64,000 nt of DNA. Source: Escherichia phage vB_Eco_BCPEco_001. The DNA lies in sequence record PV295200.1. One strand, given 5' to 3'. A model generated the notes under the pieces. The model worked only from the letters and a program-made list of their open reading frames with translations. It did not search any database and was not told the DNA's origin. Both the position numbers and the translations under genes were made by a program. Numbering within the stretch: the first letter of the stretch is position 1; the number at the start of each line of letters is the position of its first letter. Of this stretch, positions 13,952-43,381 are shown piece after piece.

Positions 13952-14024
13952 TTGGGAATTAGCCAAGTTGGTAAGGCATAGCACTTTGACTGCTAGATGC
14001 AAAGGTTCGAGTCCTTTATTCCCA
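13952..14024 (+). tRNA. tRNA-Gln (anticodon UUG)
   Basis: Cloverleaf folded by hand: acceptor tgggaat/attccca, anticodon loop ctTTGac, T-loop ggttcgagtcc; CCA not encoded. Confidence 0.85.
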
Positions 14025-14025
14025 G

Positions 14026-14112
14026 CGCGAGAATGGTCAAATTGGTAAAGACACAGCACTTAAAATGCTGCGGAATGATTTCCTTGTGGGTTCGAGTCCC
14101 ACTTCTCGTACC
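14026..14112 (+). tRNA. tRNA-Leu (anticodon UAA), long variable arm, CCA encoded
   Basis: Acceptor gcgagaa/ttctcgt; anticodon loop ctTAAaa; T-loop ggttcgagtcc; 3' acca. Confidence 0.85.
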
Positions 14113-14118
14113 AAAGTT

Positions 14119-14191
<73 letters not shown>

Positions 14192-14202
14192 AAATTTAAT
14201 TT

Positions 14203-14276
14203 ACTTCGTGTAGCTCAGTTTGGTAGAGCGTCTGCTTTGGGAGCAGAATGTCGCAGGTTCAAATCCTGCCGCGGAG
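14203..14276 (+). tRNA. tRNA-Pro (anticodon UGG)
   Basis: Acceptor cttcgtg/cgcggag with G-U pairs; anticodon stem tctgc/gcaga, loop ttTGGga; T-loop ggttcaaatcc. Confidence 0.8.
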
Positions 14277-14278
14277 AC

Positions 14279-14366
14279 TGGAGGCGTGGCAGAGTGGTTT
14301 AATGCACCGGTCTTGAAAACCGGCAGTCGCTCCGGCGACTCATAGGTTCAAATCCTATCGCCTCCG
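14279..14366 (+). tRNA. tRNA-Ser (anticodon UGA), long variable arm
   Basis: Acceptor ggaggcg/cgcctcc; anticodon loop ctTGAaa; T-loop ggttcaaatcc. Confidence 0.85.
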
Positions 14367-14373
14367 TAATTTC

Positions 14374-14446
14374 GCTGATTTAGCTCAGTAGGTAGAGCAA
14401 CTCACTTGTAATGAGAAGGTCGGCGGTTCGATTCCGTCAATCAGCA
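14374..14446 (+). tRNA. tRNA-Thr (anticodon UGU)
   Basis: Acceptor gctgatt/aatcagc; anticodon loop ctTGTaa; T-loop ggttcgattcc. Confidence 0.85.
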
Positions 14447-14452
14447 TATCAA

Positions 14453-14524
14453 GGCCCTGTAGCTGGAAGGTTCAAGCAAGCGACTCATAATCGCCAGATG
14501 GTGGTTCAATTCCACCCAGGGCCA
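14453..14524 (+). tRNA. tRNA with CAU anticodon (Ile by homology to the T4 lysidine-modified tRNA-Ile; Met by anticodon alone)
   Basis: Acceptor ggccctg/cagggcc; anticodon loop ctCATaa; T-loop ggttcaattcc. Confidence 0.75.
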
Positions 14525-14565
14525 TATTTTGAGAACATAAATACTCTTAGAAATAGGAGATATTT

Positions 14566-15231
14566 ATGTTCTATTACATTTATAAAATAACAAATAAAAT
14601 TAATAATAAAATCTATATAGGCGCTCATTCTACCGAAAATTTAGATGATGGATATATGGGTTCTGGTAAATTATTAAAAAGAGCCCAAGATAAGTATGGT
14701 ATAGAAAATTTTTCTAAAGAAATATTAGAGTATTTTGACGATAAAACCTCTATGTTTGAGTCAGAAAAGAATATTGTGGCTGAAGAGTTTTTAAAGCGCC
14801 CTGATGTTTATAATTTGAAATTAGGTGGTGAAGGTGGTTGGGACCATTTAAACACTAAAGAATATTTGGATAAAAAGAAAGAAGCTTCCTTAAAAGGAGC
14901 TGCCGCTTTTAAAACCAGATTTGAGAACGACCCAGACCTTAAAGAAAAATATCGTAAAATGGGTTCAGAAAGGTTTAAACAGCTTTGGGATAATCCTAAG
15001 TATAGAGAGAAATTTTTAAATACTAAATCTTTCTTGGGTAAGACCCATACTCCTGAAACTATTAATAAAATGAAAGAATCTCACGCCAGAAATAAACACC
15101 AACAAGGTGAAAAGAATTCCCAATTTGGTATGATGTGGATTCATTCATTAGATGAAAAAGTTTCTAAACGTATTAAGAAAACTGACCCAATTCCAGAAGG
15201 ATGGTTTAAAGGTCGAAAAATGAAATTTTAA
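14566..15231 (+). CDS. segB: GIY-YIG homing endonuclease SegB, embedded in the tRNA cluster
   Basis: 221 aa, same size and position as T4 segB (between the tRNA subclusters); GIY-YIG motif [20 protein letters not shown]. Confidence 0.8.
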   Translation: MFYYIYKITNKINNKIYIGAHSTENLDDGYMGSGKLLKRAQDKYGIENFSKEILEYFDDKTSMFESEKNIVAEEFLKRPDVYNLKLGGEGGWDHLNTKEYLDKKKEASLKGAAAFKTRFENDPDLKEKYRKMGSERFKQLWDNPKYREKFLNTKSFLGKTHTPETINKMKESHARNKHQQGEKNSQFGMMWIHSLDEKVSKRIKKTDPIPEGWFKGRKMKF

Positions 15232-15233
15232 TT

Positions 15234-15310
<77 letters not shown>

Positions 15311-15629
15311 AAACAAGAAGCCGGGTCGCTACCGGCAAGTCGTCGGACTGATGTTCCCTGAGTAAGGACTGGCATTAATAAATCTTTATGTTTTGTTAAT
15401 GCCCCCTTATATCACAGCAGAAACGGCGCACCGAATTATCGATTCGAGGAAATATCTTTGCCGTAAGCCGAGTAGCGTTTTTGACGGAACGTTCGGATAT
15501 GGTCAAGATATGGCCTTTTAAAAATATTGAGTAGCGTCAACTGCTTAATAACCGGGTTCGAATCCCGGCGTTTCGTACAAACACTTGCCTTAGCAGGTGG
15601 AACCCCGACAAGGTTGCCGCAAGGCTCAG
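15311..15629 (+). ncRNA. stable small RNA region (T4 species 1/2, rnaC/rnaD-like) downstream of tRNA-Arg, with a tRNA-like T-arm
   Basis: No ORF; GC-rich structured sequence; tRNA-like arm ccgggttcgaatcccgg at about 15560-15576; position matches T4 stable RNAs C/D; boundaries approximate. Confidence 0.45.
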
Positions 15630-19433: not shown

Positions 19434-19964
<531 letters not shown>

Positions 19965-20023
19965 AGTTGTTTACTTTCTCCTAGAATTGTGATAGTATAT
20001 TCACAGTTACTTGGAGGGATAAA

Positions 20024-20440
20024 ATGACTCGTATTAATTTGACTTTAGTATCTGAACTTGCTGATCAACATTTAATCGCAGAATACCGTGAATTGCCGCG
20101 TGTTTTTGGTATAGTTCGTAAGCATGTGGCAAACGGTAAGCGCGTTAAAGATTTTAAAATATCTTCTAAATTTATTTTAGGTTCTGGTCATGTTACTTTC
20201 TTTTACGATAAGTTAGAATTTTTGCGAAAGCGTCAATCGGACATTATAACGGAATGCTTAAAACGCGGGTTCAGTATAAAAGATACTGAAGTTCCTGACA
20301 TCAGCGATATTCCAGCAGAATGGAAAAATGATTATAACCCATGCAAATCGGCTATTAAATTGAGTCAACAACGACTCGATGAAAAAATTTTAATGAAGCC
20401 ACACTGGTATAAATACTACGGCAAAAATATTTACATTTAA
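20024..20440 (+). CDS. denV: endonuclease V (pyrimidine dimer DNA glycosylase)
   Basis: 138 aa; [17 protein letters not shown]...[11 protein letters not shown] matches T4 DenV from memory. Confidence 0.9.
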
Positions 20441-21126: not shown

Positions 21127-21452
21127 TGACAGATACGCAACTTTTCGAATATCTTTATTTTTCGCCAAAAACTATTAAAAATAAATTGGTGAATCATTTT
21201 GAAATTTTGGCAAATAACAACGTCTTGAGCGAATTTTATCCCAAGCAATACAAATTACAAAAAGGTGTATTCAAAGGATGCAGAGTTTTGTGCACTGCTC
21301 CTAATGCAAGATTAATGAATAAAATTCCATATTTTACCATGGAATTTATTGATGGACCATTTAAAGGATTAATTACTCAAAGTTTAATGGCATATGATTC
21401 TGAGCCATTTTTAATTAAAGAACAATCTTGGATAAAATTATTTTCTAATTGA
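21123..21452 (+). CDS. hypothetical protein
   Basis: 109 aa from an ATG overlapping the upstream stop; track ORF 21072 starts earlier inside the upstream gene. Confidence 0.45.
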   Translation: MMTDTQLFEYLYFSPKTIKNKLVNHFEILANNNVLSEFYPKQYKLQKGVFKGCRVLCTAPNARLMNKIPYFTMEFIDGPFKGLITQSLMAYDSEPFLIKEQSWIKLFSN

Positions 21453-21458
21453 GGTTAT

Positions 21459-21821
21459 ATGAAAGCATATCAAATTCTTGAAGGCACACATAAAGGTACT
21501 ATTTATTTTGAAGATGGTATTCAAGCACGAATTATTGTCTCTAAAACCTTTAAAGAGGACTCTTTTGTAGACCCAGAAATTTTCTATGGTTTGCATGCCC
21601 GTGAAATTGAAATTGAGCAACAGCCTACAGTTAAAATTGAAGGTGGTCAACACCTGAACGTTAACGTTCTGCGTCGTGAAACTCTGGAAGATGCAGTTAA
21701 GCATCCGGAAAAATATCCGCAGCTGACCATCCGTGTATCCGGTTATGCAGTTCGCTTTAACTCTCTGACTCCGGAACAGCAGCGCGACGTTATCGCTCGT
21801 ACCTTTACCGAGAGTTTGTAA
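21459..21821 (+). CDS. autonomous glycyl radical cofactor (GrcA/YfiD-like)
   Basis: 120 aa; C-terminal half [63 protein letters not shown] recalled as identical to E. coli GrcA, including the glycyl-radical motif RVSGY. Confidence 0.85.
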
Positions 21822-22042
21822 TGGCAAAGATAATTATTGAAGGTTCTGAAGATGTGCTAAATGCTTTCGCCGAGTGGTTTAGTAATTCAGGCGAACAGCA
21901 ATTTAATGAAGCCTGGAATATGGGTGATATTGATGGAATTTATCCTACGACAGAAATTTCTGTTCAGGGATATGGCATTCATGAACCTATTCGTTTAGTT
22001 GAATACGATTTATGCACTGGTGAGGAAGTCAAATATGATTGA
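21821..22042 (+). CDS. hypothetical protein
   Basis: 73 aa acidic ORF, ATG overlapping the upstream stop. Confidence 0.45.
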   Translation: MAKIIIEGSEDVLNAFAEWFSNSGEQQFNEAWNMGDIDGIYPTTEISVQGYGIHEPIRLVEYDLCTGEEVKYD

Positions 22043-30741: not shown

Positions 30742-30767
30742 GGGAGCCTTCGGGCTCCCTTTTTTTA
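30742..30767 (+). terminator. rho-independent terminator
   Basis: gggagcc ttcg ggctccc followed by ttttttt. Confidence 0.65.
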
Positions 30768-30771
30768 TTTC

Positions 30772-30819
30772 AAAAATTTTTCACAAAACGGTTTACAAGC
30801 ATAAAGCTTTATGGTACTA
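30772..30819 (+). promoter_or_regulatory. early promoter with conserved leader (promoter-plus-stem-loop type cassette)
   Basis: tttttcacaaaacggtttacaagcataaagctttatggtactatacaactatcaactgatacggatttggagaataaaATG; leader near-identical to 59026-59107. Confidence 0.6.
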
Positions 30820-39988: not shown

Positions 39989-40462
39989 ATGTTATTGACT
40001 GGCAAATTATATAAAGAAGAAAAACAGAAATTTTATGATGCACAAAACGGTAAATGCTTAATTTGCCAACGTGAATTAAATCCTGATGTTCAAGCTAATC
40101 ACCTCGATCATGACCATGAATTAAATGGACCAAAAGCAGGAAAGGTACGTGGATTGCTTTGTAATCTCTGCAATGCTGCAGAAGGTCAAATGAAGCACAA
40201 ATTTAATCGTTCTGGCTTAAAGGGACAAGGTGTTGATTATCTTGAATGGTTAGAAAATTTACTTACTTACTTAAAATCCGATTACACCCAAAATAATATT
40301 CACCCTAACTTTGTTGGAGATAAATCAAAGGAATTTTCTCGTTTAGGAAAAGAGGAAATGATGGCTGAGATGCTTCAAAGAGGATTTGAATATAATGAAT
40401 CTGACACTAAAACACAATTAATAGCTTCATTTAAGAAGCAGCTTAGAAAGAGTTTAAAATGA
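39989..40462 (+). CDS. 49: recombination endonuclease VII (Holliday junction resolvase)
   Basis: 157 aa; MLLTGKLYKEEKQKFYDAQNGKCLICQRELNPDVQANHLDHDHE matches T4 gp49 from memory; zinc-binding Cys. Confidence 0.9.
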   Translation: MLLTGKLYKEEKQKFYDAQNGKCLICQRELNPDVQANHLDHDHELNGPKAGKVRGLLCNLCNAAEGQMKHKFNRSGLKGQGVDYLEWLENLLTYLKSDYTQNNIHPNFVGDKSKEFSRLGKEEMMAEMLQRGFEYNESDTKTQLIASFKKQLRKSLK

Positions 40463-42276
40463 CAATTGAAAAAGAAATTGAAGGATTGATTCATAAAACT
40501 AATAAAGACCTTTTGAACGAGAATGCTAATAAAGATTCTCGTGTTTTTCCAACTCAACGGGACCTTATGGCTGGTATTGTGTCTAAGCACATTGCCAAAA
40601 ATATGGTCCCGTCTTTTATTATGAAAGCGCATGAAAGCGGAATTATTCATTTCCATGATATTGATTATTCCCCTGCTCTTCCATTTACTAATTGCTGTTT
40701 AGTAGATTTAAAAGGAATGCTTGAGAACGGATTTAAGCTCGGTAATGCACAGATTGAAACTCCTAAATCAATCGGTGTTGCTACTGCAATTATGGCACAA
40801 ATTACTGCGCAAGTTGCTTCCCATCAATATGGCGGAACGACTTTTGCGAATGTAGATAAAGTACTTTCTCCTTATGTTAAACGCACCTATGCAAAACATA
40901 TCGAGGACGCAGAAAAATGGCAAATCGCTGATGCACTGAATTATGCTCAATCTAAAACAGAAAAAGATGTATACGATGCATTCCAAGCTTATGAATATGA
41001 AGTAAATACTCTCTTTAGTTCAAACGGACAAACGCCTTTTGTAACAATTACATTTGGTACGGGAACTGACTGGACTGAACGAATGATTCAGAAAGCAATT
41101 CTGAAAAATCGTATTAAAGGTCTTGGTCGTGATGGGATAACTCCTATTTTCCCTAAGCTTGTTATGTTTGTTGAAGAAGGTGTTAATCTTTATAAAGACG
41201 ATCCGAACTATGATATTAAGCAGCTTGCTCTAGAGTGTGCAAGCAAAAGAATGTATCCTGATATTATTTCAGCTAAGAACAATAAAGCTATCACTGGTTC
41301 ATCTATTCCTGTTTCTCCAATGGGTTGCCGTAGTTTCTTGAGCGTATGGAAAGATTCGACCGGTAATGAAATTCTTGATGGACGTAATAATCTTGGTGTT
41401 GTAACACTGAATCTTCCTCGCATCGCGTTAGATTCTTATATTGGAACACAGTTCAATGAACAGAAATTTGTTGAATTATTCAATGAACGAATGGATTTAT
41501 GTTTTGAAGCTTTGATGTGTAGAATTAGTTCCTTAAAAGGAGTTAAAGCGACTGTTGCTCCTATTCTTTACCAAGAAGGTGCATTCGGGGTTCGTCTTAA
41601 ACCTGATGACGATATAATTGAGTTATTTAAAAATGGTAGAAGTTCAGTGTCCCTAGGATACATTGGTATTCACGAATTGAATATTCTTGTCGGTCGTGAT
41701 ATTGGACGAGAAATTTTAACTAAAATGAATGCTCATCTTAAACAGTGGACTGAAAGAACCGGATTTGCTTTTAGTTTATATTCGACTCCTGCTGAAAACC
41801 TTTGTTATCGCTTCTGTAAACTCGATACAGAAAAATATGGAAGTGTAAAAGATGTTACCGATAAAGGTTGGTACACTAACAGTTTCCATGTTTCAGTAGA
41901 AGAAAATATTACTCCGTTTGAAAAGATTTCCCGCGAAGCACCATATCATTTCATTGCGACAGGTGGTCACATTTCTTATGTTGAACTTCCTGATATGAAA
42001 AATAACTTAAAAGGTCTTGAGGCCGTGTGGGATTATGCTGCACAACATTTAGATTATTTTGGTGTTAATATGCCAGTAGATAAATGTTTTACATGCGGAA
42101 GTACCCATGAAATGACTCCTACTGAAAACGGATTTGTTTGTTCTATTTGTGGAGAAACTGATCCTAAAAAGATGAATACCATAAGAAGAACATGCGGCTA
42201 TCTTGGAACTCCTAGCGTTGTTCCATGGAATTTAGGTAAAATGAAAGAAATGGTAAAACGAGTAAAACATGCATAG
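40459..42276 (+). CDS. nrdD: anaerobic ribonucleoside-triphosphate reductase NrdD (intronless)
   Basis: 605 aa continuous ORF; C-terminal glycyl-radical region RRTCGYLG and zinc ribbon CFTCGS...CSICG. Confidence 0.9.
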   Translation: MTIEKEIEGLIHKTNKDLLNENANKDSRVFPTQRDLMAGIVSKHIAKNMVPSFIMKAHESGIIHFHDIDYSPALPFTNCCLVDLKGMLENGFKLGNAQIETPKSIGVATAIMAQITAQVASHQYGGTTFANVDKVLSPYVKRTYAKHIEDAEKWQIADALNYAQSKTEKDVYDAFQAYEYEVNTLFSSNGQTPFVTITFGTGTDWTERMIQKAILKNRIKGLGRDGITPIFPKLVMFVEEGVNLYKDDPNYDIKQLALECASKRMYPDIISAKNNKAITGSSIPVSPMGCRSFLSVWKDSTGNEILDGRNNLGVVTLNLPRIALDSYIGTQFNEQKFVELFNERMDLCFEALMCRISSLKGVKATVAPILYQEGAFGVRLKPDDDIIELFKNGRSSVSLGYIGIHELNILVGRDIGREILTKMNAHLKQWTERTGFAFSLYSTPAENLCYRFCKLDTEKYGSVKDVTDKGWYTNSFHVSVEENITPFEKISREAPYHFIATGGHISYVELPDMKNNLKGLEAVWDYAAQHLDYFGVNMPVDKCFTCGSTHEMTPTENGFVCSICGETDPKKMNTIRRTCGYLGTPSVVPWNLGKMKEMVKRVKHA

Positions 42277-42288
42277 GGTTAAACACCA

Positions 42289-42921
42289 ATGAATTATGAC
42301 AGAATCTATTCAAATCTAGTTAATTCTGCTGAACACCCATCTAAGCCCCGTCAAACTAAAGCCGGGTATGAACTTCATCATATAATTCCAAGAAGCATGG
42401 GTGGTCCAGATGATTTAGACAACTTAGTATTTTTAACTTATAAGGCCCACTATACTGCTCATCATTTATTGGCTAAAATATATGGTGGAAAGATGTATGA
42501 TGCATATTGGATAATGAGTAATAGTAAGCATAGAAAAGTTACTTCTTCACAATACGCGTATGCAAAAGCTAAGAAATTTGAAAATCAGCGTGGCGCAAAA
42601 AGAAGCGATAAAACTAAGAAGCTAATGAGCATAGCTAGGTCTAAAGTAACTCTTCCTGATGATTTTGGAAAAAGGATATCTGATGGGCTAACAGGAAGAA
42701 CTTTGTCTACTAGTCATAAAGAGCATATCAAAAATAGTTCTAGAAATCGCTTTAACACCAAAACGGTTATTGGCTATTCACCAGACGGAAATACAATAGA
42801 ACTAACTGGAGCAACTGAAATAAGAAATGCAGGATTTTTTCATTCTGCTGTTTATAAATGTTGCAAAGGAATTCAATCTATTCATAAGGGATATACTTGG
42901 AAATATAAAGATGAATTATGA
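42289..42921 (+). CDS. HNH homing endonuclease, free-standing between nrdD and nrdG
   Basis: 210 aa; HNH core GYELHHIIPRSMGGPDDLDNLVFLTYKAHYTAHH; first 7 residues MNYDRIY identical to the NrdG N-terminus; 3' end overlaps the nrdG start by 11 nt. Confidence 0.65.
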   Translation: MNYDRIYSNLVNSAEHPSKPRQTKAGYELHHIIPRSMGGPDDLDNLVFLTYKAHYTAHHLLAKIYGGKMYDAYWIMSNSKHRKVTSSQYAYAKAKKFENQRGAKRSDKTKKLMSIARSKVTLPDDFGKRISDGLTGRTLSTSHKEHIKNSSRNRFNTKTVIGYSPDGNTIELTGATEIRNAGFFHSAVYKCCKGIQSIHKGYTWKYKDEL

Positions 42922-43381
42922 TAGAATATACCCGTGCTGCTTTGTTAATGGTCCTGGATGCAGGGTCGTTCTCTTCGTCACTGGATGTTTGCATAAATGC
43001 GAAGGTTGTTATAATCGTAGTACTTGGAATGCTCGTAACGGACAGTTATTCACTATGAATACCGTTAAAGAACTTGCGTCCCATTTAAGCAAATCGTATA
43101 TCCAAGGCCTTACCTTAACCGGTGGTGACCCACTTTATCCACAGAACCGAGAAGAGATTTCAAATTTAGTTTCTTGGGTTAAAGCAAGATTTCCGGAGAA
43201 AGATATCTGGTTGTGGACAGGATATAAGTTTGAAGATATTAAACAGCTAGAAATGCTTAAATATGTTGATGTTATTATTGATGGGAAGTATGAGAAAAAT
43301 CTTCCGACTAAAAAGCTGTGGCGAGGATCAGATAATCAGCGACTTTGGTCAAATACCGATGGGGTGTGGAAACATGATTAA
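42911..43381 (+). CDS. nrdG: anaerobic ribonucleotide reductase activating protein NrdG (radical SAM)
   Basis: 156 aa from MNYDRIYPCCFVNGPGCRVVLFVTGCLHKCEGCYN (radical-SAM Cys cluster); the track ORF 42827 starts earlier inside the HNH gene. Confidence 0.85.
   Translation: MNYDRIYPCCFVNGPGCRVVLFVTGCLHKCEGCYNRSTWNARNGQLFTMNTVKELASHLSKSYIQGLTLTGGDPLYPQNREEISNLVSWVKARFPEKDIWLWTGYKFEDIKQLEMLKYVDVIIDGKYEKNLPTKKLWRGSDNQRLWSNTDGVWKHD

Follow-up and report, generated by a model that had tools for sequence, protein, structure and literature searches.

How does one half of a gene in a T-even phage come to be identical in DNA sequence to a chromosomal gene of its host? T-even phages are textbook destroyers of host DNA and share nearly no sequence with the host. 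The gene concerned is vs.6 (Y06I), located at positions 21459–21821 on the plus strand of a 64,000-nucleotide stretch of Escherichia phage vB_Eco_BCPEco_001 (PV295200.1); this whole stretch is referred to below as the window. From the letters of the window, an initial annotation had described the gene as a chimera with a host-like 3′ half, recently captured or converted from Escherichia coli grcA or from the 3′ end of pflB, and had suggested, together with the presence of nrdD and nrdG in the same window, that the phage can repair oxygen-damaged glycyl-radical enzymes. The reading that we consider best, with a probability of roughly 85%, is that an old phage vs.6 gene underwent gene conversion by host grcA, at least twice among phages and confined to the part encoding the radical domain, and that the product acts as a spare part for PFL.

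Results

The vs.6 gene and its product

The vs.6 reading frame was recognized from the list of open reading frames and from the annotations of homologous phage genes (grcA/vs.6). It encodes a 120-residue autonomous glycyl-radical cofactor homologous to GrcA (YfiD; TIGR04365, IPR011140) and has its own start, ribosome-binding site and stop, so that the product should be a small standalone protein and not a domain of a large enzyme. A Shine–Dalgarno-like GAGG (21451–21454, plus strand), read from the sequence and with a putative role in vs.6 translation, lies 4 nt before the ATG and overlaps the TGA stop codon of vs.7 (21450–21452). Upstream of vs.6 are vs.8 and vs.7, and downstream follow vs.5, vs.4, vs.3 and regB. 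A scan for promoters and terminators around vs.6 revealed nothing over shuffled expectation. On the minus strand, a 129-residue ORF (21438–21827) spans all of vs.6; the open frame is its sole support and it is treated here as a mechanical ORF.

The window is a segment of a Tequatrovirus (T4-like) genome. Over the 1.3 kb that were tested, it is 100% identical to Shigella phage vB_Shso_BCPShso_001 and ~95–97% identical to most other Tequatrovirus records, including T2. The vs.6 product differs from the T4 protein by a single residue, Q54P, and T4 shares the host-like tract described below. Upstream of vs.6, the putative lysozyme gene e (19470–19964) is directly followed by a 138-residue ORF (20024–20440) which we take to be denV. 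In T4, internal-protein genes lie between e and denV; no such genes appear to be present there in the window (19470–20440).

The Pfam domain Gly_radical (PF01228) was detected at residues 60–101 of the protein with 67 bits, against a cut-off of 22.2. The best match among solved structures is E. coli YfiD/GrcA (PDB 6owr, E = 9e-42), followed by the PFL C-terminus (1cm5/1h16; 63 residues, E = 5e-26), and the radical domain shows 75–80% protein identity to the C-terminus of PflB. The NCBIfam GrcA equivalog TIGR04365 is the top match but scores 154.9 bits, below its cut-off of 170, because the N-terminal half of the vs.6 protein has diverged; no NCBIfam model matched this half alone. The N-terminal half is homologous to and collinear with that of GrcA, phage residues 22–60 aligning with GrcA 28–67 in a weak BLASTP match (14/40 identical, 35%; E = 5e-6). 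The radical-bearing glycine, Gly95, is encoded by a GGT codon at 21741–21743 (plus strand) within the motif RVSGYAV and corresponds, by translation and alignment, to Gly102 of YfiD and Gly734 of PflB. The radical role of the equivalent glycine is known from the literature (PMC8683613).

A tract identical to E. coli grcA

The initial annotation had described the last ~60 residues as apparently the same in E. coli GrcA, and indeed residues 61–120 of the phage protein equal GrcA 68–127. This identity extends to the DNA. A tract of 172 nt (21637–21808, plus strand), which encodes the structured glycyl-radical domain, matches grcA of E. coli SK1144 at 172/172 bases; an ungapped alignment from the stop codon places its limits at 21639–21808, while the BLAST alignment starts at 21637. 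The phage-type 5′ half of the gene (21459–21636, plus strand; residues 1–59/60) has no DNA match to E. coli. In ungapped comparison, identity to E. coli grcA 5′ of 21637 is only 17–50% per 30-nt window, far below that of the tract. To the right, the stretch 21809–21821 (plus strand), comprising the last four codons and the stop (ACC GAG AGT TTG TAA), carries phage-type synonymous codons, with four synonymous differences from E. coli at 21809, 21812, 21815 and 21816; it marks where the conversion ends on the right.

The contrast in composition that had been noticed between the two halves was borne out by measurement. GC content is 0.494 in the tract, 0.337 in the 5′ half and 0.347 in the window as a whole, while GC3 amounts to 0.43 in the tract and 0.20 in the 5′ half, so that the composition jumps at the junction and is not uniform along the gene. 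Leucine, arginine and proline codons in the 3′ part are CTG, CGT/CGC and CCG. The GC content of the tract corresponds to the 99.6th percentile of all 172-nt windows, and equally GC-rich spots occur only where eight tRNA genes are clustered (Gln, Leu, Gly, Pro, Ser, Thr, Met and Arg; 13953–15311). Comparison of the 64-kb window by megablast with all E. coli genomes yielded no other host-like DNA, save one 54-nt match (30756–30809; 94.5%) that is found in E. coli strain BE104 alone and coincides with no annotated feature.

Among complete E. coli genomes, 5,426/5,426 match the tract at ≥95%. In a sample spread over these genomes, about 45% are 100% identical over the 172 nt, and most of the others have one difference at one of a few polymorphic sites (21659, 21677 and 21731 in window coordinates). 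The median number of places matching the tract is 2 per genome (grcA and pflB); at least one E. coli genome has 21 such places, which may be a multi-copy situation or an assembly oddity. In phages that lack a recent host tract, an almost unchanged peptide is encoded by DNA of only 70–86% identity, and for this reason identity at every synonymous site of 57 codons can be attributed neither to chance nor to convergence. The PflB C-terminal glycyl-radical domain has the same fold and motif as that of the phage protein. However, the DNA identity to pflB is only 80%, compared with 100% for grcA, and pflB, or a captured pflB 3′ fragment, was rejected as donor. Of the two donors originally proposed, the alignments thus point to E. 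coli grcA.

Homologues of vs.6 in other phages

Phage homologues were collected as 80 loci from IMG/VR together with further GenBank phage records. The host sample consisted of 80 grcA loci from GTDB species representatives (without K. pneumoniae) and PLSDB records, with 84 host genes compared in all; the K. pneumoniae reference was the grcA gene of chromosome CP125156.1 from the plasmid collection PLSDB. Several chromosomes or large pieces of chromosomes are filed as plasmids in that collection (CP125156.1, NZ_CP093490.1, LR134122.1 and several E. coli records).

The presence of vs.6 is not recent, since it was found in 6/6 T4-like genomes compared in 2006 (PMC1524935). Like the window gene, the homologues in other T4- and T5-like phages show homology over their full length including the 5′ half, and in other T4-like phages they occupy the same position beside regB. 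Unlike the window gene, however, the homologues of CC31, Slopekvirus-like phages, Pseudotevenvirus, Krischvirus and T5-like phages have 3′ halves nearer to phage composition; in these as well as in jumbo phages, the counterpart of the tract is 70–86% identical to the best of the 84 host grcA genes. The search for a recent host tract was negative in CC31, Pseudotevenvirus PF-CE2, Yersinia phage MHG19, seven Slopekvirus-like loci (L014–L020), Krischvirus MIZ5 or the T5-like loci. The copies with 70–86% identity are old and have been drifting towards phage composition. The homologue of Krischvirus MIZ5 (L179:464–1519; host E. coli B) is of this old type (RISGYATRFNAL), without a host tract, and an HNH endonuclease gene lies directly 3′ of it.

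Tract limits and direction of transfer

The left limit of the tract is the start of a conserved block coding for 10 residues, where the phage and host genes become alignable; upstream of it, identity is about 47%. On the right, the codons GAG AGT before the vs.6 stop are the same as in phages without a host tract. The vs.6 3′ end contains a GAGAG Shine–Dalgarno-like site and the sequence TAATG, in which the start of vs.5 (21821–22042) overlaps the vs.6 stop. The corresponding E. coli sequence is TAAGG and would destroy the vs.5 ATG; the stretch 21809–21821 probably serves vs.5 translation. With a homology limit on the left and selection for the vs.5 start on the right, the tract ends fit homologous gene conversion.

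Capture of the entire host gene was rejected, because among the 50,697 phage records searched none had DNA similar to the 5′ half of the E. coli gene. The host DNA would then have taken the place of the homologous segment in a gene that the phage already had. As vs.6 is full-length in all T4-like phages and the tract extends no further than phage–host homology, the event was most probably homologous conversion of a pre-existing phage grcA homologue and not fragment capture; of the two routes left open in the initial annotation, conversion is thus the one that we retain.

The transfer ran from host to phage, because the tract has host composition within a 35% GC genome and because the 3′ halves of host grcA genes diverge in step with host relatedness. 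The E. coli 3′ half is 98.7% identical to that of Escherichia sp., 92.3% to C. amalonaticus, 87.8% to K. pneumoniae and 82.1% to Salmonella. A further reason is that the host 3′ halves diverge as the host 5′ halves do.

Age of the tract in E. coli phages

The E. coli tract was found in 642 phage records at ≥95% identity, 373 of these at ≥99%. The carriers are Tequatrovirus and Mosigvirus phages, including T4, T2 and RB phages, and the conversion event is not specific to the phage studied here but shared by hundreds of genomes of these two genera. When the window is compared with the Mosigviruses JK42 or mar005P1, identity is 50–85% in flanking genes, 85–95% in the vs.6 5′ half and 97–98% in the tract, and drops to 73% directly after the stop codon. 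With a Mosigvirus-type contig (L008) there are 18/178 differences in the 5′ half and 0/172 in the tract (Fisher p = 5e-6). Special synonymous constraint on the 3′ half does not explain this pattern, since both halves of the host gene diverge equally: between E. coli and Salmonella grcA, 23/67 third positions differ in the 5′ half, compared with 26/60 in the 3′ half. The tract is thus much younger than the Tequatrovirus/Mosigvirus split; either it was captured more than once or it was spread between the genera by recombination.

Changes in the phage tracts relative to the E. coli sequence number 0–5 per 172 nt and are mostly private, giving a star-like pattern around the host allele. One Tequatrovirus (L005) has the alternative E. 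coli allele C at 21677. At 21812, every phage examined has G. The private mutations and the L005 allele are indirect evidence that homogenization of the tract by the host may be ongoing. Tequatroviruses listed on Salmonella, Yersinia or Citrobacter hosts have retained the E. coli version of the tract. Tequatrovirus and Mosigvirus also share the same junctions, so that among E. coli phages a single capture followed by spread from phage to phage accounts for the data as well as repeated captures do.

Klebsiella phages and a possible third case

In the Jiaodaviruses, which infect Klebsiella, the 5′ half of vs.6 is phage-type and the encoded protein differs from that of the window at 17/60 residues there. 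A 156-nt core was compared with K. pneumoniae grcA and proved 99.4% identical in KPV15 and 98.1% in both vB_VIPKPNUMC01 and Roth16. With E. coli grcA, the Jiaodavirus core shares ~87% identity, the same as the two hosts' genes share with each other (87.8%). The GC content of the Klebsiella-phage tract is 0.56, and two Klebsiella-type residues are encoded (E84L and K88E in GrcA numbering). A search of phage records with K. pneumoniae grcA produced 106 records at 95–99% and 28 at 90–95%, all the matches listed in these two bands being Klebsiella phages; E. coli phages reach 85–89%. The K. aerogenes record (L171) has an indel and was compared over its 3′ part alone. Synonymous states that match two different host species imply at least two separate host-to-phage transfers, because co-divergence cannot produce them.

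The right junction of the Jiaodavirus tract lies ~25 nt before the stop, compared with 21809–21812 in the E. coli phages, and it is not the same in all Jiaodaviruses: Nispero (L176) has the host-type ACC TTT, KPV15-type phages have ACT TTC, and KEN25_2 (L177) differs again. In the last 30 nt of vs.6, GCC and GCT also alternate (L176, L177 and L164/L172/L173/L178). These varied right ends suggest several conversion end-points or different host alleles. In KPV15 itself, vs.6 (L164:1324–1685) is split by a frameshift into two annotated CDS, reflecting either a sequencing error or a pseudogene.

In an IMG/VR phage contig of ~91 kb (L023), a 75-nt patch (1807–1881 of the locus) differs from Haemophilus grcA (L141) by 2 mismatches. 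In the same 75-nt stretch, five sibling contigs show 7–15 mismatches, with equal divergence elsewhere. The patch is a possible third and shorter host conversion, and a weaker case than the other two.

Function of the product and relation to nrdD and nrdG

Structural work on YfiD has defined residues 61–127 as a structured half which has the fold of PflB 693–759 and carries the radical, while the N-terminal half, residues 1–60, is disordered (PMC8683613) and has been implicated in binding cleaved PFL. The host-identical part of the phage protein (GrcA 68–127) is almost exactly the structured half. Once activated by PFL-AE, both YfiD and T4 Y06I are reported to restore activity to PFL cleaved by oxygen (Wagner et al. 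2001, as cited in PMC8683613), and with a single-residue difference from T4 Y06I this activity should apply to the window protein. A likely role for vs.6 would be to keep host PFL running under fluctuating oxygen at a time when the host cannot make its own GrcA. Genetic methods did not find vs.6 to be essential in T4 (PMC1524935).

The proposal that the phage repairs glycyl-radical enzymes can be retained for PFL, for which rescue by Y06I is published, but not for NrdD, which has a different radical motif. Both nrdD (40459–42276) and nrdG (about 42827–43381) are indeed in the window; however, they are about 19 kb away from vs.6 and the link is a loose one. The NrdD protein of the window carries the radical motif RRTCGYLG and ends in ...RRTCGYLGTPSVVPWNLGK..., while the vs.6 motif is PFL-type instead. 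By domain match, vs.6 does not look like a NrdD spare part, its radical domain being unlike the NrdD C-terminus. Between nrdD and nrdG, and overlapping the start of the nrdG ORF, lies an HNH endonuclease ORF (42289–42921; Pfam PF01844), probably a mobile endonuclease of the mob type.

A different arrangement was observed in four large-phage contigs, L027, L029 and L030 (345–357 kb) and L044 (235 kb), in which a grcA homologue is located directly 3′ of nrdD (at about 1–1420 and 1458–1857 per locus). Their nrdD genes encode a C-terminus of the type ...RRVSGYL... or ...RRVCGYI... which ends shortly before the grcA homologue. This adjacency, which is not present in the window, could hint at a link of spare-part proteins with the anaerobic reductase in those phages.

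Discussion

We have arranged the data in the following scenario. T4-like phages would long have carried a full-length, diverged and AT-rich grcA homologue. In the lineage of the window phage, the part coding for residues 61–117 would have been overwritten by homologous recombination with E. coli grcA, the conversion stopping on the left where homology begins and on the right just before the vs.5 ribosome-binding site and ATG. The same kind of event took place independently in Klebsiella Jiaodaviruses with K. pneumoniae grcA. The conversion itself might be performed by the T4 recombination system acting on host DNA fragments, and a tract that already matches the host gene perfectly should be easy to convert again, which may keep it homogenized. 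T4 degrades host DNA early in infection, and this counts against recombination with host DNA. The resulting protein combines an N-terminal half specific to the phage with the same radical domain as in the host protein. The radical would be put on Gly95 by the host activase PflA, and the domain would slot into oxygen-cleaved host PflB, so that PFL may be kept working in microaerobic infection while host gene expression is shut off.

A more far-reaching version, which we advance tentatively and do not regard as the likelier state of affairs, is that the radical-domain half evolves in concert with grcA and is re-copied repeatedly from the species currently infected, either because an exact fit to PFL and PFL-AE of the host is selected or because the identity in itself makes recombination frequent. 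Its counterpart is that there was one capture per host species, followed by phage-to-phage spread in mixed infections without continuing host conversion, low diversity then reflecting a recent origin. This differs from our best explanation in the number of events alone and not in kind. It would account for the left and right junctions and the fixed G at 21812 that Tequatrovirus and Mosigvirus have in common, for the private mutations that build up per lineage (0–5 per 172 nt) and for the E. coli version seen in Tequatroviruses on Salmonella, Yersinia and Citrobacter hosts. On the other hand, the right tract ends differ between Nispero, KPV15-type phages and KEN25_2, one Tequatrovirus has the alternative E. 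coli allele at 21677, and shared junctions are also explicable if the left one lies where homology runs out and the right one is held in place by selection for the vs.5 start. We consider a single capture per host species a credible scenario, though a distinctly less probable one than that outlined above.

Other explanations for the identity fare much worse. A single ancient acquisition might have been kept host-identical by selection on the nucleotide sequence, as an RNA element or through codon optimization, and at the protein level all GrcA and PFL proteins show extreme conservation of this domain. Other phages and host species, however, encode nearly the same peptide at 70–88% DNA identity, the tract has no Rfam match (E up to 1) and an unremarkable fold (z = −1.0), and its synonymous sites agree with E. 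coli when the phage is an E. coli phage and with K. pneumoniae when it is a Klebsiella phage, which selection cannot bring about without recombination; this makes nucleotide selection very improbable. Since phage preparations contain host DNA and the tract is exactly host-like, one could also think of host reads joined to a phage contig during assembly. The chance of such an artefact is negligible, as hundreds of genomes that were sequenced independently, those of T4, T2 and RB phages among them, have the same in-frame junction, the tract bears lineage-specific private mutations, and the published T4 Y06I protein is the same chimera. Equally negligible is the reverse transfer, by which E. coli would have taken its grcA 3′ half from a phage: bare identity, and nothing further, speaks for it, against the host-like GC and codon usage of the tract in a 35% GC phage and against host 3′ halves that follow host relatedness and diverge like the host 5′ halves. 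As to function, vs.6 could be a spare radical domain for phage NrdD or an activase titrator instead of a helper of host PFL. The presence of nrdD and nrdG in the same window, the grcA homologue directly after nrdD in the four jumbo-phage contigs and published speculation about spare parts for other glycyl-radical enzymes (PMC8683613) lend some colour to this idea. It is nonetheless improbable given that the vs.6 radical domain is identical to that of host GrcA and 75–80% identical to the PflB C-terminus, that the radical region of NrdD (RRTCGYLGTPS...) is unrelated in detail and encoded 19 kb away, and that Y06I has been published as acting on PFL, together with PFL-AE.

The vs.6 protein and its activity are already known, in T4 itself. 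Like GrcA (YfiD) and T4 Y06I, the window protein is small and standalone, ends in 60 residues identical to GrcA and has the RVSGYAV radical loop, and it departs from E. coli GrcA in its N-terminal half, which is ~35% identical, and in being 7 residues shorter. That the gene is a mosaic at the DNA level goes unmentioned in the accessible papers on GrcA and Y06I. Our search of the full-text literature, which was of partial coverage and is no proof of novelty, found no description of the vs.6 DNA mosaic or of its host-matched recurrence. The process, host–phage intragenic recombination, is of a known kind and has reportedly been described for auxiliary metabolic genes in the psbA and psbD genes of cyanophages. 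As in psbA/psbD, a host-homologous metabolic gene of a lytic T4-like phage has host-like patches in both sequence and composition, with repeated exchange with the host gene pool; the features of a psbA-type mosaic, namely a segment of host identity in one frame, host composition and independent phage–host events, are all found in vs.6. In contrast to psbA/psbD, the patch in vs.6 is exact (172/172), does not extend beyond a single structural domain, corresponds to the respective host species in two enterobacterial genera, and occurs in hydroxymethylcytosine-DNA coliphages that destroy host DNA. The vs.6 finding reveals no new kind of molecular system. It is a clean and unusually exact new example, from phages regarded as well shielded against host DNA.

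A perfect 172-bp host tract indicates that host-to-phage homologous recombination occurs in T-even phages and gets fixed, and it provides a natural, datable marker of host association. For spare-part proteins, it appears that the structured radical domain has to be that of the host and that the disordered N-terminal half may be specific to the phage. If the radical-domain half does evolve in concert with host grcA, the tract would be a built-in record of the recent host species, and it would constitute direct evidence of routine host chromosomal recombination in strictly lytic T-even phages that degrade host DNA.
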